IMG/VR virus record: IMGVR_UViG_2654587570_000013
Span: 1 to 35,061 of that record
Length of the DNA: 35,061 bases
Source: a virus
Lineage: Duplodnaviria; Heunggongvirae; Uroviricota; Caudoviricetes
Direction: 5' to 3' (one strand)
A model generated the notes under the pieces. It saw only the letters and a program-made list of their open reading frames with translations, was not told where the DNA came from and did no database searches. The translations under genes were made by a program, and so were the position numbers. How positions within the stretch are numbered: position 1 is the stretch's first letter; each line of letters opens with the position of its first letter. This document shows, one piece after another, positions 15,993 through 34,456 of the stretch.

Positions 15993-16289
15993 TTAAAACT
16001 CCATGAATTTAAAATATTCAACACCACCTTCACCCCCTAAACCAAAGGAGACGGTGCAGCCAGCAGGAACAAACGAATTTATAGTAGATCCCCAATTGGT
16101 CCCACCACGACGACGAGCAACGGTCAAACCATCTACGTTAATATGTGCATCAGACCACCCACCACCAGCATTATGACGCATTACAGCGACACCAGCACGA
16201 GCAGTACCATAGCCGTTAGGAATATCAAATACATGCCATTTTAAAGCATCGATTTTAGTATTAATTTCGCTACTTACCCAATATCCCAT
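15993..16289 (-). CDS. glycine-rich small protein, paralog 1 of 3 (98 aa)
   Basis: AAGGA RBS. FDIPNGY motif, GGGW loop and C-terminal YFKF. It lies directly downstream of the fibre gene. Confidence 0.7.
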   Translation of the reverse strand: MGYWVSSEINTKIDALKWHVFDIPNGYGTARAGVAVMRHNAGGGWSDAHINVDGLTVARRRGGTNWGSTINSFVPAGCTVSFGLGGEGGVEYFKFMEF

Positions 16290-16327
16290 ATAAGAATCCT
16301 TAGCGGAGATTTCTCCCCGCTTTCCAA

Positions 16328-19300
16328 TTACCCTAATTTAGCTTCAATTGCAGCAAGACGTTCACGAAGAAGTTTATTTTCTTCGCTCATTTCTTGGACC
16401 GCTTTAATTAAAAGCGCGTTCACTGCGGAGTTTGAAATTGTTAAAATTTCTTCTGGGTTATCAAAACCACCAATTTTTGCGGTTTTAACAGCTTCCGGTA
16501 ATACCTCTTGTAAATCCTGTGCGATAATACCAATCTCATGACCTATAACTTCTCGGTCATTAAGAGATTTAACTTTATCGTAGGTTTTAACTTTGAGTTT
16601 ATTTACCTTATCCACCGCATTTTCTTCGTAATCTTCAACATTAATTTTCAGACGACGATCGGAACGAATATAAACATCGTTAAAGTTACCATTACCAGGA
16701 CAGTAAAAAGTACCATCATGATGGAACTCGAATACAGCTTGAGGGTGACCAGCCGCTGGCGATGCCTCCGCAGATCCAACACGAATAATTGCTTGCCCCC
16801 AATTTTGAGGAACACGACGCATACCAAAATCGACGGCAGTTGTATACCCTTGATTGGTGATTAAACTTCTTCCTTTGATAATCGGATAATAACAGTCCGG
16901 TGAAACATAGCCATGATCGACAAATATTGGCGCTTCTAAGCCCCATTGATCACCCCAACCTCCAGATTGGCTAGCAGTCCAACGTTCACCATGAACATAG
17001 AATCGAACGTTATTGACATGAGTCATTTCGACACCTTTTGGACTTAGCGCGATATCCCCCGCGTTTGTAATATTGATAGCAGCATTAGTAGCATAGCTAT
17101 AGAACGCTAATCCATTATCAGCACCACCTTTACCGATATACCAGTTGTTATTATCAGCACAAGTACCCAACAAATATATCGACGAATCGCCCGTTTCGGC
17201 ATTCATGATGATTGCGTCAGAACCACGATTAACTTTAAGTTTCCCGAAGAAGGTGTTTTTAATGGTATTATCACCCAATCGTTCAAATTCGGCTAAAAAT
17301 CCTTTTGAGTCACGAAGGCTTAAAACGTTATTTCGACCTGTATTGCTTGCCCCCCAATGGACGAGTTCCATATAGTCCATAGATTGACGAGAACCAGCTT
17401 TAAAGAAAAGATTGTCCTCAAGACGAGTGCTACCATCAATTCCAAGATGCAAACAGCGTGCGGTCGCTGTGCCACCTAGATCTAATCCACCACCAGCAAA
17501 ATCATAACTAAATGGTCTACGGCTATTCCACCCACCGAAAGAATCACCGTGATCTGTGGAAAGAATATGGAAGCTAGTTCCATCATTACGGAACATCAAA
17601 CCATAATTACCACCTTTAACAGCCAAACGAGCATTTTCAGATAATGCAACTTCGCTATTCATTACAATTTTCTGGCCTTTACCACCAGTAATATGTAATT
17701 CACCATCTTCAATCAGGTTTATCGAGTTTTGACCGTTATCATTCCACCAAATAAAATCTTTGGTTGTTCCATCACCGAAGCCAAACCAGCCATTACGAAC
17801 ATCTTGTCCAGTGCGATAATCCATGAAATTAAAATGGCTTGATTCGTTTGGTCCTCGACGAATATCAATACCAGAATTTCCACCAACACCACCATCCAAT
17901 GTTAATCTCTTGACATGTAACCCGGTTGTTGCTGTCAGCAATAATTCCTGATTTGTATCTTCGTATCCAGTAGCAAGACGATATGCGTTATCATCAACTG
18001 TCTCATGCCAGATAGTGGCAGGAGCAGAACTACGGAAGCGACGCAACATTTTCTTAGCATTTGTTTGCTGTTCGTTCAAATGCTCAATGTCATATTGGCC
18101 TTGATGGTTTCCAGCAAAATTTAACGTTCCACGGTTGCTAAAGTTATTGAACGATGAAATGTTAAGAGCATCAAAAATTTCATCTGCAACAGGTTTTTCA
18201 CCGCCCAGGTATTCAGGAGTATCCAACAGGTTTAAAGAAACACCACCGGAAGAAACTTGATATTCTGCTAAAACAAATCCTGTATGTGCACCATAGTAAG
18301 CGTAAAGATCATAATTGTCGCCATCGGTTGGAATAGCGCAAAAATGTTGTTCATAATGCCAAATAGTATAATACGCATTGAATACAACACCTTTCGGGCT
18401 ATTGTTGCCGCATCGAATCACCAATTCGATAATATTGGCTTGTCCATTCATCCCGACGTTATAACCGTTACCACCAACTAAGCGGATCTTAGCACTACGA
18501 CCGTGTTGCTGTGGCATTGTCAAAGTGCCTAGTTTAAACCAACCACCCTCGATCCCAAAATTAAGCGTCTTCTGGAACAGTCGGTCAATTTCTGCTTTCG
18601 AATATGCGCCAATTTCGGCAGGAGTAGGTTTATCACCTTCATGATACATGCGGTGAGAATATGCCAAATGACCCAATTCATCATAGCCGTATGTTCTTAC
18701 CGTATGAACCGGATTAGACCCATAAGTGAACTCAAAGCCACGAGCATGATTAACACCAGATGGATGCGGAACATGCAAGATCATTGCAATATGACCCGCC
18801 AGGTCATTCATGCGGAATGCACCAAAGTAATCAAGATTACGCGCATTTGGATCATCAAAATAGTTTGCGGTCTTAGACAGCAAATAACCATCAGTATAAG
18901 TGTTTACGTGTTTTTTGATGTACTTGCCATCAGCAGATCCATCGGCTGCATCAATACGGCTTTCTAAGCGTGCCAATTCAGAATCAGTGTAAGACTTGTT
19001 ATTGTCAACTTTGCTATGAATTGCTGTATTTTTGGCTTCAACATCACGGGTTAATGCTGCGACGTTATCCGCTGCCTCTTGCTTATTGGCTGCAATCACA
19101 CCAGTAAGGTTATTGTAGGTGTCAGTTAACTGATTTTCCGCATAGACTTTATTTGCTGCGATAGTGCGGTCAGTTTCTGTCTTAATCAGATCAACTTTGT
19201 CATTGATTGCTTTGTCATTACTTGCGATTGTCGCGTCGGTACGGGATTTAATATCATCAACTTTTTTATTGATGCGGGTATCCAGTTCCTGGGTTGCTAC

Positions 19301-25693: not shown

Positions 25694-27601
25694 TTAGAAC
25701 GATGTTACCCAACTACGGCCTCTATTTGGAGGTCTGACGATGTTTTGACGTTGCGGTCGTGTGATTGGCTTAGTTTCTTCGATTTGCTCGTTAGATTGCG
25801 ATTTAGGAGCTTTTACGGGTTCTTCGACAACGCGGTTTAAGCTGTCTTTCATTGCAATGAGTTTATCCCATGACATTTTTGAAAGGACGTAGCGAGAAGC
25901 CGCATAGCTATAAACCAGACAGTCGAGAGCCTCGTTTCGGGTACTACCTGGATTTTTCACCCAACGCACGCCAGTAGTAGTACGCTTGATGGATTCACTC
26001 AAAAGCTGATCGAGATAATCATCAGGAACGGTTTCTGATATCTCTAAACCAATATGAGGATTGTCTTTCAGGTTTCTAACCAGCATTTCACGAACAGCAG
26101 ATTTACCAACGTTAACACCCAGCATAAGCAATTCATGACCACCTGTGCGGGTAGGTTTAACCGGAATCACTGGAGCATTACCAGATGAACTACCTTTGAT
26201 CGCGTGTAGGTTCTTCCACTTACCGCAAATACGGTATCCGGCTTGAGTGAATCGACCGTTCGATGTATCAAGGAAGCTGGCGAGCATAGGAACACGATCA
26301 CCCGATACAGTAGTAAATTTGGTTTTATGGAAGTTGATTAATCTATCCCATACAGGGGATTCATATCGTTCACAGTTATGATCGTAAAAGCTGCGGTGAT
26401 CCAGAATGTAAACCTTATCTTTCGCTACACCTAAGATGGTAGTTTCTGCGCGATCTAATTGCTGGTCAGTACCCGCACATAAGAAAATCACGTCATCAGG
26501 GATATTCTCGATAGAAACATCTGTTTTGAGTTGTTCCAGTTCATTTGCTTCTACTGCCGTGTCCTGATCGTCGTATACCTTGCCTAACACGGTGTTAAAA
26601 AAGGATTGTAAATCAAAGGATTGCCACGCATGACTAAAATCAACCACACAAGCGCGAATCGTGCTGAAAGGTGAATACAGACGACTGATCCAGAATCCTG
26701 CTACCTCACTTTCACGGGTTGCTCTCCACTCTCCTTGTGCTACTGCCCTGATTCGTTCCCCTTCTGTCCATGCGTTCTTACAGTGGGGGCAAATATAACG
26801 AGCGGTATCAGGATCGGGTAAGTTCTTACCATCAATGTTACGCCATTCAAATTGAACGTTTTCCCACTCGATCACCTGGTGTCTACCGCAATGAGGACAC
26901 GGAACAAAAAACATACGCATATCGCTTGATAACCATTGCTGGTTAATGCTTCCCAGCTTACTGGTCGGGGTACTGGATACGACTAATCGACCTTCATCGC
27001 CAAAGGTAGTTAAACGGTTAGCAGCCAGTGCCACCGGATCACCTTCTTCTGAGGCTGTGGCAGCATCAATTTCGTCAAGTAATCCAACCTTTGCGGTCTT
27101 ACCACGTAGGGTTGATGGGCTGGTAAGCGATACCATGTACAGGAAGTGATTCGTTTTTAACTGGAGTTGGTTGTTGTTGTTAACCGCGTTGCGATCATTC
27201 TTGTCTGTAACCACGTCTTTCAATGCATCACATGCTTCGATAGACGGTCGGATCTTACCCGCGAGATATTGAGACATTTCTTTAGCGGTTGATTGTCCGA
27301 TAATCATATTGCATGGATCGTTAGCCATCTGGTTAAACAGGATACCGTTTAGGATGGTAGTTTTTCCGATCTGCGCACTGGTCATCAGTACATACTTTTT
27401 CTTATTCTCAAGGAAAGGAGCATCAATCATGCCTTTCTGGAATGACAGCAATTTAACTTTATCCCCCGCTTGAGGACCATCTACCAGCACCATATTCGCT
27501 TCGCACCATTCAGACGGAAGGAGCTTAGGCGGTGGAGTGATATATTTTGCGGCATTTTTAAGAATCTTTTTTAATTTTGCCTTATTAGAAATCAGTTTCA
27601 T
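25694..27601 (-). CDS. terL: terminase large subunit, lambda GpA-type (635 aa)
   Basis: Walker [10 protein letters not shown] and Walker B GLLDEID. The paired Cys motifs CPHCGRHQ...[10 protein letters not shown] are typical of GpA-family terminases. The size (635 aa) fits lambda gpA. Confidence 0.9.
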
Positions 27602-28314: not shown

Positions 28315-28548
28315 ATGACTATGACTACTAAAGCTACTCGCGGTCGCCCTACCCGTTTTAATCGTGAACAGATGGCTGATATTGCCTACGCTTACTATAC
28401 AGCGGATCGTGGTAAGGAAGCGAAAGAACAGATTCTTAGTGAACATGGGATCTCAATCGCCCAATTCTATAAGAATATGAAGAAGTTAGACATTAAATTC
28501 TATGTTCAGATCGGTGATGGTCAGATCGTAGAAGCAACAGGTTTTTGA
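28315..28548 (+). CDS. small HTH DNA-binding protein (77 aa; alternative start 28321)
   Basis: ATRGRPTRFNREQMADIAYAYY...GISIAQFYKNMKKLDIK is paralogous to the 31655..31834 product. The GGAG position favours ATG 28321. Confidence 0.6.
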   Translation: MTMTTKATRGRPTRFNREQMADIAYAYYTADRGKEAKEQILSEHGISIAQFYKNMKKLDIKFYVQIGDGQIVEATGF

Positions 28549-28556
28549 TTCTCTTT

Positions 28557-28580
28557 GCCACTCTTCGGAGTGGCTTTTTT
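28557..28580 (+). terminator. intrinsic terminator
   Basis: GCCACTC-TTCG-GAGTGGC followed by TTTTTT. Confidence 0.75.
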
Positions 28581-28734: not shown

Positions 28735-29577
28735 TTACAGTCCGAAGGCTTCCAGAGTTCCGATATTCTTACGAATCAGTGCAGCCGTATTGTTGATAAT
28801 TGCACGAGCATTGTTTGGCTGCGGTAATTTCAAAGTTGCTACCGTCTCTTCCTCAATCAAGCCCAATTTAACCAGCACTGGTAAACAGTCAGTTGTGAAC
28901 TCAAGCTGACCATGTGCTGATTGTCGAGCGTACATGTAAGCAGGAGGAAGAACATCATAGCCGTTAGGCTTACCAGAAGCATCCAGACGACGCTCAATGT
29001 GTTTAGCCTCACATAATCCCTTAAGAATACGTTGTACCTTCGTAGAGCCTCGTTTTTCGCCTAATAAGCGGGTGAGACTGTGTGCGTCAATGGCACGTCT
29101 GATGTGGAGATCAACTAAACGTTTATTTTCGCGGGTTTTCTCTAATGCCAGTTCGATCCAATCGGTTTCTTCAAAGTGTTCATATGGATTAACCGGAACA
29201 TTAGCTTTACCTTCTTTCATCAAACGCCATTCTTTAGCAATTTTGAAGCGAAGCGGTGCATCGTATCCCATAACCAGAGTATTACAGAGATCTTCATCCA
29301 GTTCATACATCGGTTTATTACGATTCAGAGAATCTTTATAAGTCGTTTCTTTATAAAAACCGATGGGCGCAAAATTGCGCTCATCTCCTCCGACCAGTTT
29401 GCTACCCTTTTCAAGCGAATCAACCATATTACGAAAATCACGCATAACATCTTTATGATTCTTTCCGGTTAATTCCGCGATCTGCAAAGTAGACATGGTC
29501 AGCGGTTTGGTGTTATCAACAACCAGAGACACGGAAGCAGGTTTAATAGCAGTATTCATAGTAGTAACAGTATTCAT
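28735..29577 (-). CDS. rha: Rha-family phage regulatory protein / antirepressor-like (280 aa)
   Basis: LTMSTLQIAELTGKNHKDVMRDFRNMVDSL matches the conserved Rha N-terminal motif as I remember it. AAGGGGG RBS. Confidence 0.75.
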   Translation of the reverse strand: MNTVTTMNTAIKPASVSLVVDNTKPLTMSTLQIAELTGKNHKDVMRDFRNMVDSLEKGSKLVGGDERNFAPIGFYKETTYKDSLNRNKPMYELDEDLCNTLVMGYDAPLRFKIAKEWRLMKEGKANVPVNPYEHFEETDWIELALEKTRENKRLVDLHIRRAIDAHSLTRLLGEKRGSTKVQRILKGLCEAKHIERRLDASGKPNGYDVLPPAYMYARQSAHGQLEFTTDCLPVLVKLGLIEEETVATLKLPQPNNARAIINNTAALIRKNIGTLEAFGL

Positions 29578-29813: not shown

Positions 29814-29871
29814 AATTAACATCCTCTTTACAAATCTAGGTCAAATAGGTTCAAAGTTGTCAAGTGCGATA

Positions 29872-29900
29872 ATCATAAAAAAGTTAGAAAATTTTGTCAA
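29872..29900 (-). promoter_or_regulatory. strong sigma70-type promoter (leftward)
   Basis: Minus strand reads TTGACA (29900-29895), a 17-nt spacer, then TATGAT (29877-29872). Confidence 0.6.
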
Positions 29901-29935
29901 TGCCCCTTGACAAGCCACCAAAGGGTTGACCTAAC

Positions 29936-30394
29936 TTACAGCATATCTAAGCCTTCATCATGGCCGTAGAAGCCACCGTGAGAAGAGAAACAGATTGGTG
30001 CGTAGTCGTCGTCATCTTCGTCTTGTTCATCTTGTTCTGGGGCTTCCTGAGCGGGTTGTTTGCCGTAATCAGCCATAATCTGGTCAAGATCAGCGATCCC
30101 ATAGTAAGAGCCTAAATCAACGTCATATTCACGAACATCAAACGGCAGGTCATCACGAACAATAATTGCTGGAATATCGTTGTATTGAAGACGACCTTCA
30201 TCAGTAAGACAGTCGATGATCACAGTAGGACGACCATTTCGTTTTAAAGCGTAGAAAGCAGTTGAGTAGTTGGAGTCTTCGGAATGACGAATGATGTTAT
30301 AACCACGATTAGCGAAAACTTCTAGCATATGGAAGTTACCATAGTTTTCAGAGTCCAGACCCAGAAGTACGAAAGGAGTTTTAGTATTGATCAT
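29936..30394 (-). CDS. hypothetical early protein with acidic C-terminal tract (152 aa from ATG 30394)
   Basis: AGAGGA RBS before MINTKTPF. The N-terminal alpha/beta-like domain is followed by EAPEQDEQDEDDDDY. It is the first gene leftward of the ORF-free control region. Confidence 0.6.
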   Translation of the reverse strand: MINTKTPFVLLGLDSENYGNFHMLEVFANRGYNIIRHSEDSNYSTAFYALKRNGRPTVIIDCLTDEGRLQYNDIPAIIVRDDLPFDVREYDVDLGSYYGIADLDQIMADYGKQPAQEAPEQDEQDEDDDDYAPICFSSHGGFYGHDEGLDML

Positions 30395-30593
30395 AGTGGT
30401 ATCCTCTAAAAGAAAGTGAATCAAACAAATTACACTAGTATTTATACGAGAAAAAAATATCTATTTGGAAGTGATTGGATTCAGTCGGCTTCGCCTCCTT
30501 CATGATTTTGATTAAATCATCATCAAAACGAAGGAGTATCTTTAGAATATAAGAATCTTTCTTTTGGAGAAATAATAATCAGGAAGCAATTTG

Positions 30594-30837
30594 GCAACCG
30601 AAGGTTGCAATCCCGAAGGGATACCAATACCTTTCTAGAAAGTGATTGTTACTCACTTCGTTCGTTTACTAGAATCAGTTAGTAACTAGCATTAAATCCC
30701 TTTCTAAGAAAATCCTTTCAAAAGTGAGTGAACGCCGTAGGCGTGAACGTGAGCGAAGCGAACTATCCAATCCCTTTCGAATCCTGCTTGCAGGTCTTAG
30801 AAGGTGTTGATGGGCGCTTCGCGCACGGCTACGCCGT
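30594..30837. repeat. field of GC-clamped mini-hairpins with 3-nt loops
   Basis: GCAACC-GAA-GGTTGC (30594-30608), ATCCC-GAA-GGGAT (30610-30622), ACGCC-GTA-GGCGT (30732-30744), GC-GAA-GC (30753-30759), GCGC-TTC-GCGC (30814-30824) and ACGGC-TAC-GCCGT (30825-30837). A perfect palindrome CTTTCTAGAAAG sits at 30631-30642. Confidence 0.7.
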
Positions 30838-30967
30838 ATTCTTTTTGCGAGATCTTTCTTGAACGTAGTGAGAGAAAACGAGCAAAAAGGAGAACGTTAG
30901 TTCGAATTTTATATTCTATGGTCTGTGGGGTGAAATGTTTTTCAAGATCATACACTTATGAGATTGA

Positions 30968-31092
30968 AGTGTAGGGTTAGTGTAGGTGTGTAGGTTTCAT
31001 AGTGTAGGTTTGAGGGTGTTATAGTGTAGGTTTACTGGCTAGTGTAGTGTAGGCCAATCCCTTTAAAGTGTAGGTTTGTAGTGTAGGGTTTT
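30968..31092 (+). repeat. iteron array: 8 direct copies of (A)GTGTAGG(TTT)
   Basis: GTGTAGG starts at 30969, 30980, 30988, 31002, 31024, 31047, 31068 and 31081, all in the same orientation. Three copies are exactly AGTGTAGGTTT. Confidence 0.85.
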
Positions 31093-31093
31093 C

Positions 31094-31110
31094 ATCAAAA
31101 ATTTTGATAG
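31094..31110. repeat. AT-rich palindrome ATCAAAAATTTTGAT; 15-mer CAAAAATTTTGATAG repeated at 31245-31259
   Basis: The 15-nt palindrome is perfect. The identical 15-mer occurs at 31096-31110 and 31245-31259. Confidence 0.7.
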
Positions 31111-31195
31111 AAAATTCTTGTATATTATTTAATCAGAAAATCACCAAAAATCGCGGTAACTGCATGATTTAAAAGGAATGGTCAAAAGGTCACCG

Positions 31196-31204
31196 TGCTA
31201 TAAT
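31196..31204 (+). promoter_or_regulatory. candidate extended -10 promoter (TGcTATAAT)
   Basis: TGCTATAAT is a perfect extended -10 element. No good -35 is present. Confidence 0.4.
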
Positions 31205-31284
31205 AGGTTATAAAGGTTGATAATCGTTATCCGCCATTTTCACACAAAAATTTTGATAGTCTTTTCTCGTTTAGGTCAAGTGTA

Positions 31285-31313
31285 TTGACAACTGTCAAGG
31301 ATTATTTTATACT
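31285..31313 (+). promoter_or_regulatory. strong sigma70-type promoter (rightward)
   Basis: TTGACA (31285-31290), a 17-nt spacer, then TATACT (31308-31313). Confidence 0.65.
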
Positions 31314-31447
31314 TTTTATCGCTGGTGGGGGTTGAAATTTTCTAAACAGCCCCCATATAGATGATAAGCAAGATTTTTCGTGTATAAATACATGCATGAA
31401 ATGATTGTTCACTTCTGAAAATCCCCTGATTCACTGTTAACACATAC

Positions 31448-31475
31448 AGCACTGGTTAAACACACAGTGCTTTTT
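31448..31475 (+). terminator. intrinsic terminator inside the rightward leader
   Basis: AGCACTG / 10-nt loop / CAGTGCT followed by TTTT, about 155 nt downstream of the predicted start. Confidence 0.65.
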
Positions 31476-31533
31476 CGATTAAATAATGTACGAAATGATT
31501 AATTATTAATCTTCTCTTTAGCAATTCGTGCTC

Positions 31534-31559
31534 CCACTGATCGGATATACAGTGGTTTT
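31534..31559 (+). terminator. second hairpin with U-tract in the leader
   Basis: CCACTG / 10-nt loop / CAGTGG followed by TTTT. It has the same CACTG...CAGTG design as the first. Confidence 0.45.
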
Positions 31560-31654
31560 ACAGGGTTTTCTGAAATGACTTTTATAAATAGAAGTATCGA
31601 GGGCGAAAAGCTCTTTTTATTGTCCTTATTAATCCACATTTGAGGAATCTACTT

Positions 31655-31834
31655 ATGGCTAGACCTGTTAAGTTTACTCGTGAAATGATTGTTGATATTG
31701 CTAAACGCTTTTATGGCGATACTGAACGAGGCGGCGAGAATTTCTTTAAGAAGGAAGGAATTGATAGAAGCGGATTCTATAAGTTAATGAAGAAATACGA
31801 AATTCAGATAAAGATTAACGTTCAAGTTTGTTAA
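31655..31834 (+). CDS. small HTH DNA-binding protein (59 aa)
   Basis: GAGGA RBS 8 nt before ATG 31655. MARPVKFTREMIVDIAKRFY...GIDRSGFYKLMKKYEIQ is paralogous to the 28315..28548 product. Confidence 0.6.
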   Translation: MARPVKFTREMIVDIAKRFYGDTERGGENFFKKEGIDRSGFYKLMKKYEIQIKINVQVC

Positions 31835-31950
31835 TCCACTTTCACTGAGAATTATATGATGGCTTTAAAAATAAAAAGCCTCCCTTGTTGCAGCAAAGGA
31901 GGCTTGAAATGAACAATTAAAACTAACACAGCATTCAGGAGTATTTATAA

Positions 31951-32946
31951 ATGAAAAATTCTAAGCGCATCACCTTCAACCTGTTTATTAAATCCAACGG
32001 CAAACTGAACATTACCGTCATGGAAGGTAAAGCAAGCAAACAAGACAAATCCTTTGAAGTAGTATCCGGTAAGACTCTGACCGAAATGCGTCAGAATGCT
32101 GGCATCAAAGACGGTGCTGAATGGCAGATCACTAACCGTTTCGACAAACGTCACGTTAAACCTACACTGGTAGAAGGTGAATCCGTTTATTGCTTCGCTC
32201 GTGCTGTTAAAGCCGATGAAACTTACTATCTCGCTGTTGTTAAAACTGCTTCCGGCTTCCGTGCTGTAATGCATCACAAGAGCAAGCGTAACGAATACGG
32301 CGTAGAGACCCAGGAAGTCGCAAAACGCTTCCGTACTGTTGCTACCGAATCCACTGTAAAGGATGTTTCTGGTACTGTTAACACCGCTAAAGGCGGTTCC
32401 TTCTACAACCACGCATTACAGGTTACTTCCTCCTTCTTCTGCAAAAAAGAAGCACAGAAAGAAGTTTCTCCGGTAGTAGTTGAAGAAGTTAAAGAAGAAG
32501 TTGCAGTGGTTGAATCTTCCGAAGTTGAAGCACTGAAAGCACGCATTGCTGAACTGGAAGCTGAAAACGCATCTCTGAAAGCTGAACTGGCAGCACAGGA
32601 AACCACTTTCGAAGTAGCAGCGGTTGAAGTTGAAGCAGTTGAAGAAAAATCCATTGATGAAGAACTGGAAGAACTCCTTAACTATCGCTGGGGTGTTGTT
32701 GCAGAAGTAGAACAAGAAGTTGCTCCGGTAGTTGTTCCGGTTGAAGTTGAAAAAGAATCCGCACCTGTTACTAACTTTGAATCCCTGCGCAATAACTTTA
32801 TGGCTAAATTCAAAACCACTTGGGAAGATACCGAAGAAGAACAAGAAGAGATTGAAGTAAACGAAGACGAGATCCGCGAAGCACAGATGGCACTGCATGA
32901 CGCTATCTACGACACCAACTACAGCGCCTACGCATACGCAGCTTAA
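31951..32946 (+). CDS. abundant-type acidic coiled-coil protein of unknown function (331 aa)
   Basis: AGGAG RBS. A basic N-terminal ~170 aa domain is followed by a coiled coil (ALKARIAELEAENASLKAELAAQE) and acidic V/E-rich repeats. Extreme codon optimisation leaves a single TTA/CTA/TCA-type codon (the TTA at 32416) across 31951-32946, keeping the antisense frame open. Confidence 0.75.
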   Translation: MKNSKRITFNLFIKSNGKLNITVMEGKASKQDKSFEVVSGKTLTEMRQNAGIKDGAEWQITNRFDKRHVKPTLVEGESVYCFARAVKADETYYLAVVKTASGFRAVMHHKSKRNEYGVETQEVAKRFRTVATESTVKDVSGTVNTAKGGSFYNHALQVTSSFFCKKEAQKEVSPVVVEEVKEEVAVVESSEVEALKARIAELEAENASLKAELAAQETTFEVAAVEVEAVEEKSIDEELEELLNYRWGVVAEVEQEVAPVVVPVEVEKESAPVTNFESLRNNFMAKFKTTWEDTEEEQEEIEVNEDEIREAQMALHDAIYDTNYSAYAYAA

Positions 32947-32961
32947 TAGAGGGGTGAATCT

Positions 32962-33204
32962 ATGATGAATCAAAACAAAGAATTTCTGGGTAATCTGATG
33001 TTAGAAATTACCAAAATGAAAGAAAGAATGGTAGCGATGGAATCAGAGATTAAAACTCTTAAAGCTGATAATAAGGCGTTGAGAAAGTCCTTAAAGCTGA
33101 TTGATGAGACTAATGCGGTTATGATGGATCATGTATTCCCTGAGTGGCGAAATGAAACTAAACCTACACAACATAAGAAACTTACACTTCGAATTGTTGC
33201 ATAA
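32962..33204 (+). CDS. small coiled-coil protein (80 aa)
   Basis: GAGGGG RBS. Heptad-rich MKERMVAMESEIKTLKADNKALRKSLKL. Confidence 0.6.
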   Translation: MMNQNKEFLGNLMLEITKMKERMVAMESEIKTLKADNKALRKSLKLIDETNAVMMDHVFPEWRNETKPTQHKKLTLRIVA

Positions 33205-33904: not shown

Positions 33905-34456
33905 TTAAGACACATCAAATTCATCGTCTTCTTCTGGTTCTTGTTCCGGTTCATCCATTAATGGTAATTCTTCTTCCTCGTCTTCTCCTAAATCCGCATT
34001 TTCGAACAAGTCCCCTACTTCATTTAAACGACGCTCGATGATCTCCCTTAGCTTATTCTTCAATGTTTTCTGGTCGGTGGCAGATTCAAGAATTTCTAAA
34101 GCGTCGATTGTGGCGATCTGCAAAATAGTCTGTTTCACCTTCCCGCAATATTCCGCTAGTTCCTGCTCAACATACCCGACCGGAATCAGGAGGTTCATTG
34201 CTTCCTGGTTCTCTCGTTCGGCTGCATCTGCTAATGCTCTCTCACGGCGTAATTTCTCTACGTCGATTTGTTCCTTGACAGTAGTTTCCCTGAGTGGACT
34301 GATGATATTTTTTGCTACCCACTCGGTCCCCTCTTTGAGTGGCACGCGGCGGGTATTGGTATTGTAAGGTAGTCCCCTTTCTAACCATTTCTTAGCGGCG
34401 TTAATTGTATAGCCGTATAAGCGGGAAATTTCTGTAAGGGTTAATTCTTCTTTCAT
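33905..34456 (-). CDS. terS: terminase small subunit, lambda Nu1-like (183 aa)
   Basis: AAGGAGG RBS. The N-terminal winged-HTH LTLTEISRLYGYTINAAKKWLERGLP and the VEKLRRE...ADAAERE helix resemble Nu1 as I remember it. The C-terminal tail is acidic. Confidence 0.6.
   Translation of the reverse strand: MKEELTLTEISRLYGYTINAAKKWLERGLPYNTNTRRVPLKEGTEWVAKNIISPLRETTVKEQIDVEKLRRERALADAAERENQEAMNLLIPVGYVEQELAEYCGKVKQTILQIATIDALEILESATDQKTLKNKLREIIERRLNEVGDLFENADLGEDEEEELPLMDEPEQEPEEDDEFDVS

Follow-up and report, generated by a model that had tools for sequence, protein, structure and literature searches.

A predicted attenuating leader with a marbox upstream of an iteron-linked operon in an unstudied Escherichia coli prophage family

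How is an operon expressed that lies behind a strong promoter and a series of terminator-like hairpins? This question is raised by IMG/VR record IMGVR_UViG_2654587570_000013, a stretch of 35,061 nucleotides (nt) from a tailed phage (Caudoviricetes), which was analysed at its full length and is called the window here; it is essentially one complete temperate phage genome of ~35 kb from Escherichia coli. The leader in question lies within a 1.2-kb gap free of open reading frames (ORFs; 30425-31654), which is flanked on the left by a leftward gene for a protein of 152 amino acids (aa) and on the right by a rightward unit of genes for 59-aa, 331-aa and 80-aa proteins. A first-pass annotation had proposed that a strong promoter and three hairpin/U-tract elements gate this unit by attenuation or by processive antitermination of the lambda N-nut or HK022 put kind. 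Each of the elements it named was recovered in the sequence. We tentatively favor an attenuating structured leader behind a strong, probably operator-controlled early promoter, in which the hairpin T3 would serve as the universal gate and a marbox, a predicted site for the host regulators MarA, SoxS and Rob, would add a further input. The elements on which this proposal is built are the following, with leader types A to C described below and T1 denoting a hairpin of the leader, not the phage of that name.

31285-31313, plus strand: rightward sigma-70 promoter TTGACA-17-TATACT, 11 of 12 consensus positions matched.
31285-31298: operator-like palindrome TTGACAACTGTCAA, which contains the -35 element of the promoter.
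31448-31476, plus strand: T1, a terminator-like hairpin of 7 bp followed by UUUU, found in type A only.
31534-31559, plus strand: hairpin 2, CCACTG (31534-39) and CAGTGG (31550-55) followed by TTTT, found in type A only.
31599-31619, plus strand: T3, a match of the terminator scan, with the hairpin GAGGGC-GAAAA-GCUCUU (31599-31615) and a U-run.
31655-31834, plus strand: first operon gene, an ORF for a 59-aa helix-turn-helix (HTH) protein of the Fis/NtrC C-terminal type.
31951-32946, plus strand: gene of the 331-aa protein, listed for its co-variation with the iterons.
32962-33204, plus strand: last gene of the rightward unit, an ORF for an 80-aa coiled-coil protein.

When we surveyed complete E. 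coli genomes, the region was carried by 57-58 of them, and 19 of these were fetched for comparison. A motif scan of IMG/VR added 28 further family members; in total, 47 relatives were examined, and about 48 prophages of this family were compared. Their leaders fall into three types that align with each other only patchily, namely type A, which is that of the window and comprises 24 unique sequences, type B and type C. The 5'-proximal two thirds of the leader are type-specific, and the features conserved across the types are the position of the promoter, T3, a TATAAAT box and one invariant block. No leader ORF on either strand survives the 1-2-nt indels that occur among the relatives, and the minus-strand ORFs of 36, 36 and 46 aa were rejected because of such indels and the loss of their start codons.

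The promoter was one of the two top scorers in a 6.5-kb scan. Promoter-like matches in the scanned region overall were not above chance (12 found and 16.6 expected), and it is conservation, not single-sequence statistics, that raises both the promoter and T3 above chance. Of the 47 relatives, all except one have a near-consensus promoter at this position of the alignment, across three divergent leader types, and the promoter proposed by the first-pass annotation is confirmed as a sequence element in this respect. Terminator-like sites are enriched in the scanned region (12 found versus 5.1 expected), and no minus-strand equivalent of T1 or T3 was found in the window. T3 is the only terminator-like element kept in all leader types, with a folding free energy (dG) of -5.3 to -7.1 in every relative, and it stays at a constant position, 36-40 nt upstream of the start codon, through changes of stem and loop. 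Its stem is AGAGC/GCUCU in most type A sequences and GAGCG/CGCUC in types B and C, its loop is GAAAA in most type A sequences, GAAAT in relatives L007 and L011 and GUUAA in types B and C, and its U-run has 5-7 nt; in the window, the T-run extends to 31618, with dG -7.1 and a folding z-score (z) of -1.9. As judged from these features, T1 and T3 are both predicted intrinsic terminators, consisting of a G+C hairpin followed by a U-run, and T3 also shows the conservation through sequence change that is looked for in a putative intrinsic terminator. Since every transcript must cross at least one conserved hairpin/U-tract before it extends into the operon genes, attenuation or read-through control is the natural reading. 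The gating proposed earlier is thus retained as far as the promoter, the folded leader of ~340 nt and the conserved T3 are concerned, while its analogy to N/nut is not.

T1 is formed by AGCACTG (31448-54) and CAGTGCT (31465-71) and is followed by TTTT (31472-75), with dG -10.2 and z -3.7 in the window and dG values of -9.6 to -11.2 across relatives; one A-U to G-C double change was observed, in 2 sequences. The hairpin is present as first described, and a transcript starting at ~31320 would be ~155 nt long on reaching it, also as described. Here, we need to consider another explanation, in which the strong promoter would mainly make one or more short stable noncoding RNAs that act in trans, in type A of ~155 nt to T1 and longer to hairpin 2 or T3. 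One possible variant is an immunity RNA that causes premature termination or silencing, like P4 CI or the c4-type RNAs of P1 and N15. The promoter is near-consensus and constitutive-looking with terminators downstream, and the type-specific 5' two thirds of the leader behave like immunity determinants, both of which fit this explanation. The P4 CI RNA (seqA/seqC) and the c4-type RNAs of P1, P7 and N15 bring about early termination within the leader of an operon that has a constitutive promoter, and similarities to them also include the long untranslated leader with terminators before replication or early genes, the complementary repeats inside the leader and the absence of a recognisable protein repressor gene nearby. 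However, there is no sequence or Rfam match to these RNAs, the complementary repeat of the prophage is a marbox, and no processed RNA is known. T1 is, in addition, missing from types B and C, and its stem or U-tract is damaged in L003, L008 and L009, that is, in about 3 of the 24 type A relatives, which weakens the small-RNA alternative. When we searched Rfam, with gathering thresholds for the whole window and with expectation (E) values up to 10 for 30300-32000, only chance-level eukaryotic and small-RNA matches were obtained, and C4 was not among them; tRNA and tmRNA genes were not found. We consider it unlikely that a short trans-acting RNA is the main product of this promoter.

Hairpin 2, which had been described as a second look-alike terminator, could not be upheld. 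Its fold is weak (dG -7.4, z -1.5) and was equalled by 15 of 200 shuffles, which is not beyond chance. It is disrupted in relatives L006/L096 and L010/L037/L041, and a long-range helix competes with it.

In type A, T3 is a 5-6-bp stem with a GAAAA pentaloop that continues into GCUCUUU, and this likeness to the boxB of lambda nutL underlies the N/nut analogy. An N-like protein acting at the hairpin and the boxA-like run, or a put-like RNA acting in cis, would then allow reading through T1, hairpin 2 and T3. The arrangement of a strong phage promoter followed by a terminator is shared with lambda N/nut and with PR'-tR'/6S, several terminators precede the operon and would call for a read-through device if this were the sole promoter, and the 48-aa protein encoded nearby contains HERQRR. 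However, the analogy fails in the order of the elements, in the loop, in the N gene and in the position relative to the terminators. In lambda, boxA is located 5' of boxB, whereas the boxA-like GCTCTTTTTA (31610-31619) lies 3' of the hairpin and overlaps it, being composed of the 3' arm and the U-run, and both overlap the terminator itself. A boxB loop should be conserved, as it is read by the arginine-rich motif of N, but the loop found here varies as listed above and the stem register also shifts. The candidate boxB hairpin, coming after T1 and hairpin 2, is the final terminator-like element, whereas a nut site precedes the terminators that it suppresses. Nearby ORFs gave no N or Q family match in Pfam, PHROGs or NCBIfam. 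The 48-aa protein, named earlier as a weak candidate for an arginine-rich motif because of its ERQRR, has no such match either, and relatives with the same leader have unrelated 59-aa or 110-aa genes in its place. The put element of HK022 is a two-stem-loop RNA of ~70 nt close behind the promoter that acts on RNA polymerase with no protein involved, and the Rfam search gave no match to it here. In the promoter-proximal 100 nt, the structured 5' region, the leader types are entirely different, and this speaks against a conserved put-type RNA. Moreover, lambda PR' controls late genes, but the prophage region would control an early operon of replication type. Processive antitermination appears very improbable at this locus, and we return to the attenuating leader.

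Between the promoter and T1, two further elements were examined.

31327-31361, plus strand: GGGG module GGGGG-TTGAAA-N18-TATAGA, with CCCCC right before the -10-like box.
31376-31401, plus strand: hairpin UUUCGUGUAU/AUGCAUGAAA with dG -8.9 and z -3.2.

The first of these corresponds to a hairpin that had been placed at about +5. It does exist (GGGGG at 31327-31331 pairing with CCCCC at 31350-31354, dG -15.0, z -3.3), with coordinates 1-2 nt from those first given, but its interpretation as a hairpin element of the leader was abandoned, as it is rather a promoter-like module that sits elsewhere in the other leader types. In types B and C, the module is intact as TTGAAA-N18-TATAAA and stops 7 nt short of the T3 stem; in type A, it directly follows the main promoter and its -10 is degraded (TATAGA). 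The motif GGGGTTGAAA-N(11-16)-CCCCATAT, which reads as TTGAAA-N18-TATAAAT, is present in ~40 environmental viral contigs, where it is intergenic and upstream of a ribosome-binding site and start codon. In these IMG/VR contigs (L104-L144), a 31-nt form, GGGGTTGAAA-N13-CCCCATATAAAT, precedes genes, and many copies are followed by a hairpin and TTATTAATCTTG; it has the appearance of a conserved kind of promoter with a G4/C4 clamp. Of the pairs in the hairpin at 31376-31401, two show changes of both partners among the relatives (from GU to UA and from UA to CG).

When the leader was folded as a whole (338 nt), it gave a z of -5.4, and none of 100 shuffles folded as well. Two larger structures were predicted downstream of the elements above.

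31417-31570, plus strand: RNA domain of 154 nt, obtained with RNAalifold from 14 and from 24 type A sequences.
31488-31531, plus strand: hairpin (RNAalifold, z -2.4) in which a degenerate marbox copy in sense orientation, GUACGAAAUGAUUAA, pairs with the antisense copy.

The 154-nt domain is predicted to be closed by a helix of GAAAAUCCCCUG (31417-28) with CAGGGUUUUC (31561-70), within which lie T1, the marbox hairpin and hairpin 2. For a marginally shorter stretch, 31414-31563, z is -3.5. The pair 31424-31564 occurs as CG, UG and UA. A double change in L006 disrupts the local hairpin 2 and leaves intact an alternative long-range pairing between CAGTGG and 31430-36. For types B and C, an analogous domain with long-range closure is predicted, which is built from unrelated sequence with TGTTA/TAACA repeats. 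For 14 sequences, 94.7% of cells were paired, compared with 28-51% in slid controls, and changes on both sides of a pair were found in 9 cells, a number reached in 0 of 500 shuffles, and in 4 pairs, reached in 19 of 500. The alignment gives no test of the hairpin at 31488-31531, since 12 of its 14 pairs never vary. The formal pair counts give weak to moderate support to the fold.

The only invariant block of the leader, CTTTAGCAATTCGTGCT (31516-31532 on the plus strand), lies inside this domain. We compared it with published regulator sites, and together with the conserved TATAAAT box it is listed here.

31515-31534, minus strand: marbox, a predicted MarA/SoxS/Rob site, with the core 17-mer AGCACGAATTGCTAAAG running from 31532 to 31516.
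31583-31589, plus strand: TATAAAT box, a candidate internal -10, 10 nt upstream of the T3 stem.

The 17-mer is identical in 46 of the 47 relatives, across the three leader types, and the single change falls on an 'n' position. When GCACGAATTGCTAAA was aligned to the marbox consensus gcannwwntgnnaaa (PMC12052159), all 10 specified positions of this 15-mer matched, and when it was aligned to the consensus AYnGCACnnWnnRYYAAAY (PMC3709825), all specified positions matched except 1, 2 and 19. Positions 1-2 are GG in type A and AC in some type B and C sequences. The site further shares TTTAGCAA..CGTG (12 core bases) with the marO site of MG1655, GATTTAGCAAAACGTGGCAT. By consensus match, the invariant block is a putative marbox, and it points backwards relative to rightward transcription. 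A second marbox, CTTTAGCAAAAAGTGCT, is located 73 nt upstream in types B and C.

The spacing of this site to the TATAAAT box was then considered. The box lies 50 nt after the 17-mer in 20 of 21 type A sequences, types B and C have boxes at 60 and ~118 nt, and in every leader type a TATAAAT box lies at most 11 nt upstream of T3. The distance from the marbox to TATAAA(T) is 48 bp in type A and 58 bp in types B and C. If TATAAA (31583-88) is taken as a -10, the marbox would be centered at about -70 in type A and at about -80 in the other two types. For marboxes in reverse orientation, the published range of class I positions is -56 to -85. The geometry of the prophage marbox is thus compatible with a class I site near -70 or -80. 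The marRAB promoter (marO), whose class I marbox mediates activation by MarA, SoxS and Rob, also has this marbox in reverse orientation upstream of its -10, and the two cores are nearly identical. It differs in that the distance to the -10 is 39 bp in MG1655, compared with 48 or 58 bp in the prophage, and in that the prophage site lacks a good -35 and lies inside the leader of a prophage operon. A class II promoter on the minus strand was rejected for the prophage marbox, as no -10-like hexamer is found at 18-20 nt.

The 17-mer AGCACGAATTGCTAAAG is not confined to this prophage family. Exact copies occur in 81 IMG/VR stretches, of which more than 50 are from unrelated phages of 41-52 kb, the T1-like Drexlerviridae such as Rogue1, AHS24 and C119. 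A 21-nt intergenic direct repeat, aaATAGCACnnnTTGnTAAAA, has been described in TLS, T1, Rtp and Rogue1, where it lies ~76 nt upstream of start codons and its function is listed as an open question (PMC11447400). The prophage 17-mer is exactly identical to the core of this repeat, in ~50 T1-like contexts. In Rogue1 (L102, 1188-45738), we found 11 copies of the 17-mer within 3 mismatches against 0.3 expected, and 13 exact matches to the 15-mer marbox against 0.9 expected, a number that 0 of 100 shuffles reached. Of 42 unique T1-like contexts, 33 have a -10-like hexamer 18-20 nt downstream of the 17-mer, and in 24 of these the distance is exactly 19 nt. Judged by this spacing, the T1-like repeat is a predicted forward marbox centered near -40, in class II geometry. 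Since the motif is enriched at class II spacing in T1-like phages, coliphages appear to use it as a promoter element. The T1-like repeats differ from the prophage site in pointing with transcription, whereas the prophage site is reversed and has no -10 at that spacing, and in being present in multiple copies, compared with one in the prophage and two in types B and C. The possibility that the 17-mer is a sigma-54 or a T7-like promoter was examined by eye and rejected, because the spacing is wrong and a sigma-70 -10 is conserved in the T1-like contexts. Rha was considered as a reader of the 17-mer, being the only protein common to Rogue1 and the prophage (35% identity), and was dropped as unsupported; the TLS paper that describes the same repeats mentions no Rha or anti-repressor gene. 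Literature searches found no paper linking T1-like repeats to the marbox, no link between the marbox and phages in general, and nothing on the sequence of the region itself.

The shared motif also bears on the explanation by a trans-acting RNA, in a possible antisense variant in which 17 nt of the leader RNA, CUUUAGCAAUUCGUGCU, would pair with the AGCACGAAUUGCUAAAG repeats on transcripts of superinfecting T1-like phages. The leader RNA does contain the exact complement of the T1-like repeat, the leaders of types B and C complement two variants of it, the G-type and the T-type, and base pairing would explain the near-invariance of the 'n' positions, which protein binding would not. On the other hand, the predicted fold buries the 17-mer in a hairpin, the T1-like repeats lie so far upstream of start codons (PMC11447400) that pairing would have no obvious effect, and the marbox reading covers the motif in both T1-like phages and the prophage without any RNA. 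A role of the leader RNA as an antisense RNA against superinfecting T1-like phages is more speculative than the promoter reading.

Taken together, the attenuating leader would work as follows. The strong sigma-70 promoter, with its -35 inside an operator-like palindrome, would transcribe a heavily folded leader of ~340 nt without a conserved ORF. RNA polymerase would have to cross hairpins resembling intrinsic terminators before it reaches the operon, three in type A, of which only T3 is universal. The leader would in this way act as attenuator and insulator and keep expression of the 59-aa, 331-aa and 80-aa proteins low or conditional. The marbox might then provide a second input that responds to host stress through MarA, SoxS or Rob, possibly by means of an internal promoter of class I type that starts downstream of T1 and hairpin 2. 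We infer the transcription starts, the termination and the binding of MarA, SoxS and Rob from sequence features.

Several observations weigh against this proposal. First, the start sites and termination events are predictions throughout, and no repressor was identified for the TTGACAACTGTCAA palindrome. Second, T3 taken alone is weak (5-6 bp, dG -5 to -7, z -1.9) and not beyond chance, and types B and C lack the other two terminator-like hairpins, which some type A relatives have in damaged form. Third, covariation is thin because the relatives are 81-97% identical. Fourth, marbox matches are not enriched in the whole window (2 found versus 0.8 expected), and the 'n' positions of the 17-mer are also nearly invariant, which protein binding alone does not require; this may reflect either an additional constraint, for example RNA pairing, or a recent shared ancestor. 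Finally, the candidate internal promoter has no good -35 at 16-18 bp, with TTTACA present at 20 bp, and the two TATAAAT boxes of types B and C make the counterpart of the type A box ambiguous.

What the leader would gate can be asked of the operon itself, and here a repeat array upstream of the promoter is of relevance.

30965-31092, plus strand: iteron array of ~8-10 direct GTGTAGG(T/G)TT repeats, upstream of the promoter.
31094-31257: segment found in type A only, bounded by copies of the palindrome TCAAAAATTTTGA at 31094-31108 and 31243-31257.

The array contains 8 exact copies of GTGTAGG, compared with 2.0 expected for the whole window, and the compared loci have 6-9 repeats each. When we compared the window and L001-L019, four iteron classes (GTGTAGG, GGGGCAA, TCTTGGGGA and CGGGGA) paired with four classes of the 331-aa-type protein at 20 of 20 loci. 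These downstream proteins of ~320 aa are only 23-27% identical between classes in their N-terminal part, and the pairing is independent of both the leader type and the variant of the 59-aa protein. A repeat array together with a gene that tracks the repeat sequence is what defines a module of the iteron type. Since the protein class follows the iteron class at every locus, the operon should encode, and the leader should gate, an iteron-binding protein. We infer from this co-variation that the 331-aa protein binds the iterons; it is probably a replication initiator or a regulator, and the array is likely its binding array and possibly an origin. The segment between the array and the promoter, which contains an extended -10-like TGCTATAAT at 31196-31204, was seen in the window and in L001-L013, and leaders of types B and C lack it.

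Searches with the 331-aa protein gave no match in Pfam, PHROG, NCBIfam or PDB, and a homologue search recovered it from E. coli and Shigella alone, in sequences that share at least 94% identity with it and have no domain. The protein was seen on hundreds of contigs. Its single-sequence AlphaFold model was unusable, with a predicted local distance difference test (pLDDT) score of 43.8. The 80-aa protein has only weak coiled-coil matches, for instance YabA-like (E 0.005). The 59-aa gene is preceded by a GAGG Shine-Dalgarno sequence at 31642-45 and is annotated as a coding sequence in every relative; beyond the family, its product matches nothing but the HTH at the C-terminus of an NtrC-like activator, at 42% identity. 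When an alignment of the 59-aa protein was searched against one genome per species, this NtrC-type HTH was the single match, and no relatives in other species were found. A 76-aa paralogue of the 59-aa protein, sharing the pattern RPxxFxRE...FYKxMKK, is encoded at 28318-28548 in another rightward unit and is followed by its own terminator (28557-28574).

The operon resembles iteron replicons whose rep genes are autoregulated or attenuated (P1 repA, F repE, pSC101) in having a direct-repeat array beside a promoter and a gene product that co-varies with the repeats, and it resembles rep genes with leader attenuation (pT181, pIP501) in that leader structure is predicted to damp gene expression. 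In contrast to these, neither a Rep fold nor a Rep family could be detected for the 331-aa protein, ~200 bp separate the promoter from the iterons upstream of it, which thus are not part of it, and no countertranscript is evident.

These likenesses lead to a further explanation, that the region functions chiefly as a DNA element of a replication origin, comprising the iterons with the 331-aa protein, a Rob site and the DnaA-box-like TAATCCACA; transcription from the strong promoter would activate or prime the origin, and the hairpins would only stop that transcription. The co-variation of the array with its cognate protein suits this explanation, as does the absence of recognisable replication genes elsewhere in the 35-kb phage (by protein family searches). 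Rob was first described as a protein that binds oriC and has a site at the right edge of oriC. DnaA-box-like 9-mers are present at 31629-31637 (TAATCCACA) and 31831-31839 (TAATCCACT, the T variant), flanking the 59-aa gene in direct orientation. They are conserved only in part, however, since many relatives have ATTATTCCAGAT, and the promoter points away from the iterons. The initiator role is itself putative, given the pLDDT of 44 and the lack of family matches, and the origin explanation leaves the RNA-level signals, namely the z-scores and the double changes in pairs, unexplained. We regard a mainly DNA-level role as rather improbable.

Some neighboring features may be described separately. 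Leaders of type C (L016-L019, L023-L094) have two near-consensus promoters in tandem, 28 bp apart, and the spacer of the first contains an iteron-like TGTGTAGGA. A 12-bp hairpin at 31876-31905, between the 59-aa and 331-aa genes, has a U-run on the minus strand only; it would be expected to leave the rightward operon unaffected and to stop antisense transcription that enters from the right. The 13-nt sequence TGAAATGATTGTT is repeated exactly, in direct orientation, and is found at 31397-31409 in the leader and at 31681-31693 in codons 9-13 of the 59-aa gene; it is probably due to chance and is lost in relatives with the other HTH variant.

In the left half of the gap, the minus strand at 30470-30640 forms several short hairpins with cUUCGg tetraloops, for example GCAACCTTCGGTTGC and ATCCCTTCGGGAT, which in L011 are swapped for other hairpins at the same places. 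This suggests that the left half is a second long structured leader, for the leftward 152-aa gene. A 75-nt non-coding stretch at 30507-30582 is ~80% identical to an intergenic element of RB49-like phages (Krischvirus), which have 3-4 copies per genome; the copy in RB49 is between ORF165c and ORF164c, right after a terminator, and the element may be a cassette of promoter and stem-loop. When phage and plasmid collections were searched at the DNA level for close and remote matches, no annotated relative of the region was obtained, and the sole matches were this 75-nt element and, elsewhere in the window, tail-fiber genes. Part of a tail-fiber gene (16022-18217) is 94% identical to the distal long tail fiber of the lytic Krischvirus KFS-EC, which points to a recent exchange between this prophage family and RB49-like phages.

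The rest of the genome is in accordance with a temperate phage, and the genes used below are listed here.

996-2690: large serine recombinase gene.
25694-27601: TerL gene.
28735-29577: gene of a Rha-family protein.
33905-34456: gene of a TerS-like protein.

The window also encodes lysis, tail and head genes, and E. coli FDAARGOS_946 contains the same element (~35.3 kb) between two hicB halves, indicating by its sequence context that this unstudied 35-kb temperate E. coli phage integrates into hicB. TerL and the TerS-like protein are encoded on the same strand 6.3 kb apart, an unusual layout, and the interval contains the entire regulatory region together with genes on the opposite strand. Among the proteins flanking the region, sequence searches of Pfam, PHROGs, NCBIfam and PDB identified only Rha and the TerS-like protein, and protein family searches revealed no recognisable repressor gene in the phage. 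Three TTGACAA half-sites cluster at 29857-29913 around a strong leftward promoter, TTGACA-17-TATGAT (29900-29872), which drives the 48-aa and Rha genes. These half-sites and the rightward TTGACAACTGTCAA could be operators of one repressor; the TTGACAA motif is not enriched in the window (10 found versus 8 expected).

If the attenuating leader proposed here is correct, it would define the control region of a common but unstudied family of E. coli prophages and would indicate its probable initiator and origin. The prophage operon would then have a direct input from the MarA/SoxS/Rob antibiotic and oxidative-stress regulon that bypasses the SOS response. The wider combination, in which the early operon of the prophage is wired to MarA, SoxS and Rob through the leader marbox and the T1-like repeats are class II marbox promoters, is possible but doubtful in our view. 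If it is true, antibiotics, oxidants or bile could modulate replication or induction of this prophage independently of SOS, and T1-like phages would run much of their transcription through the host regulators Rob, MarA and SoxS.

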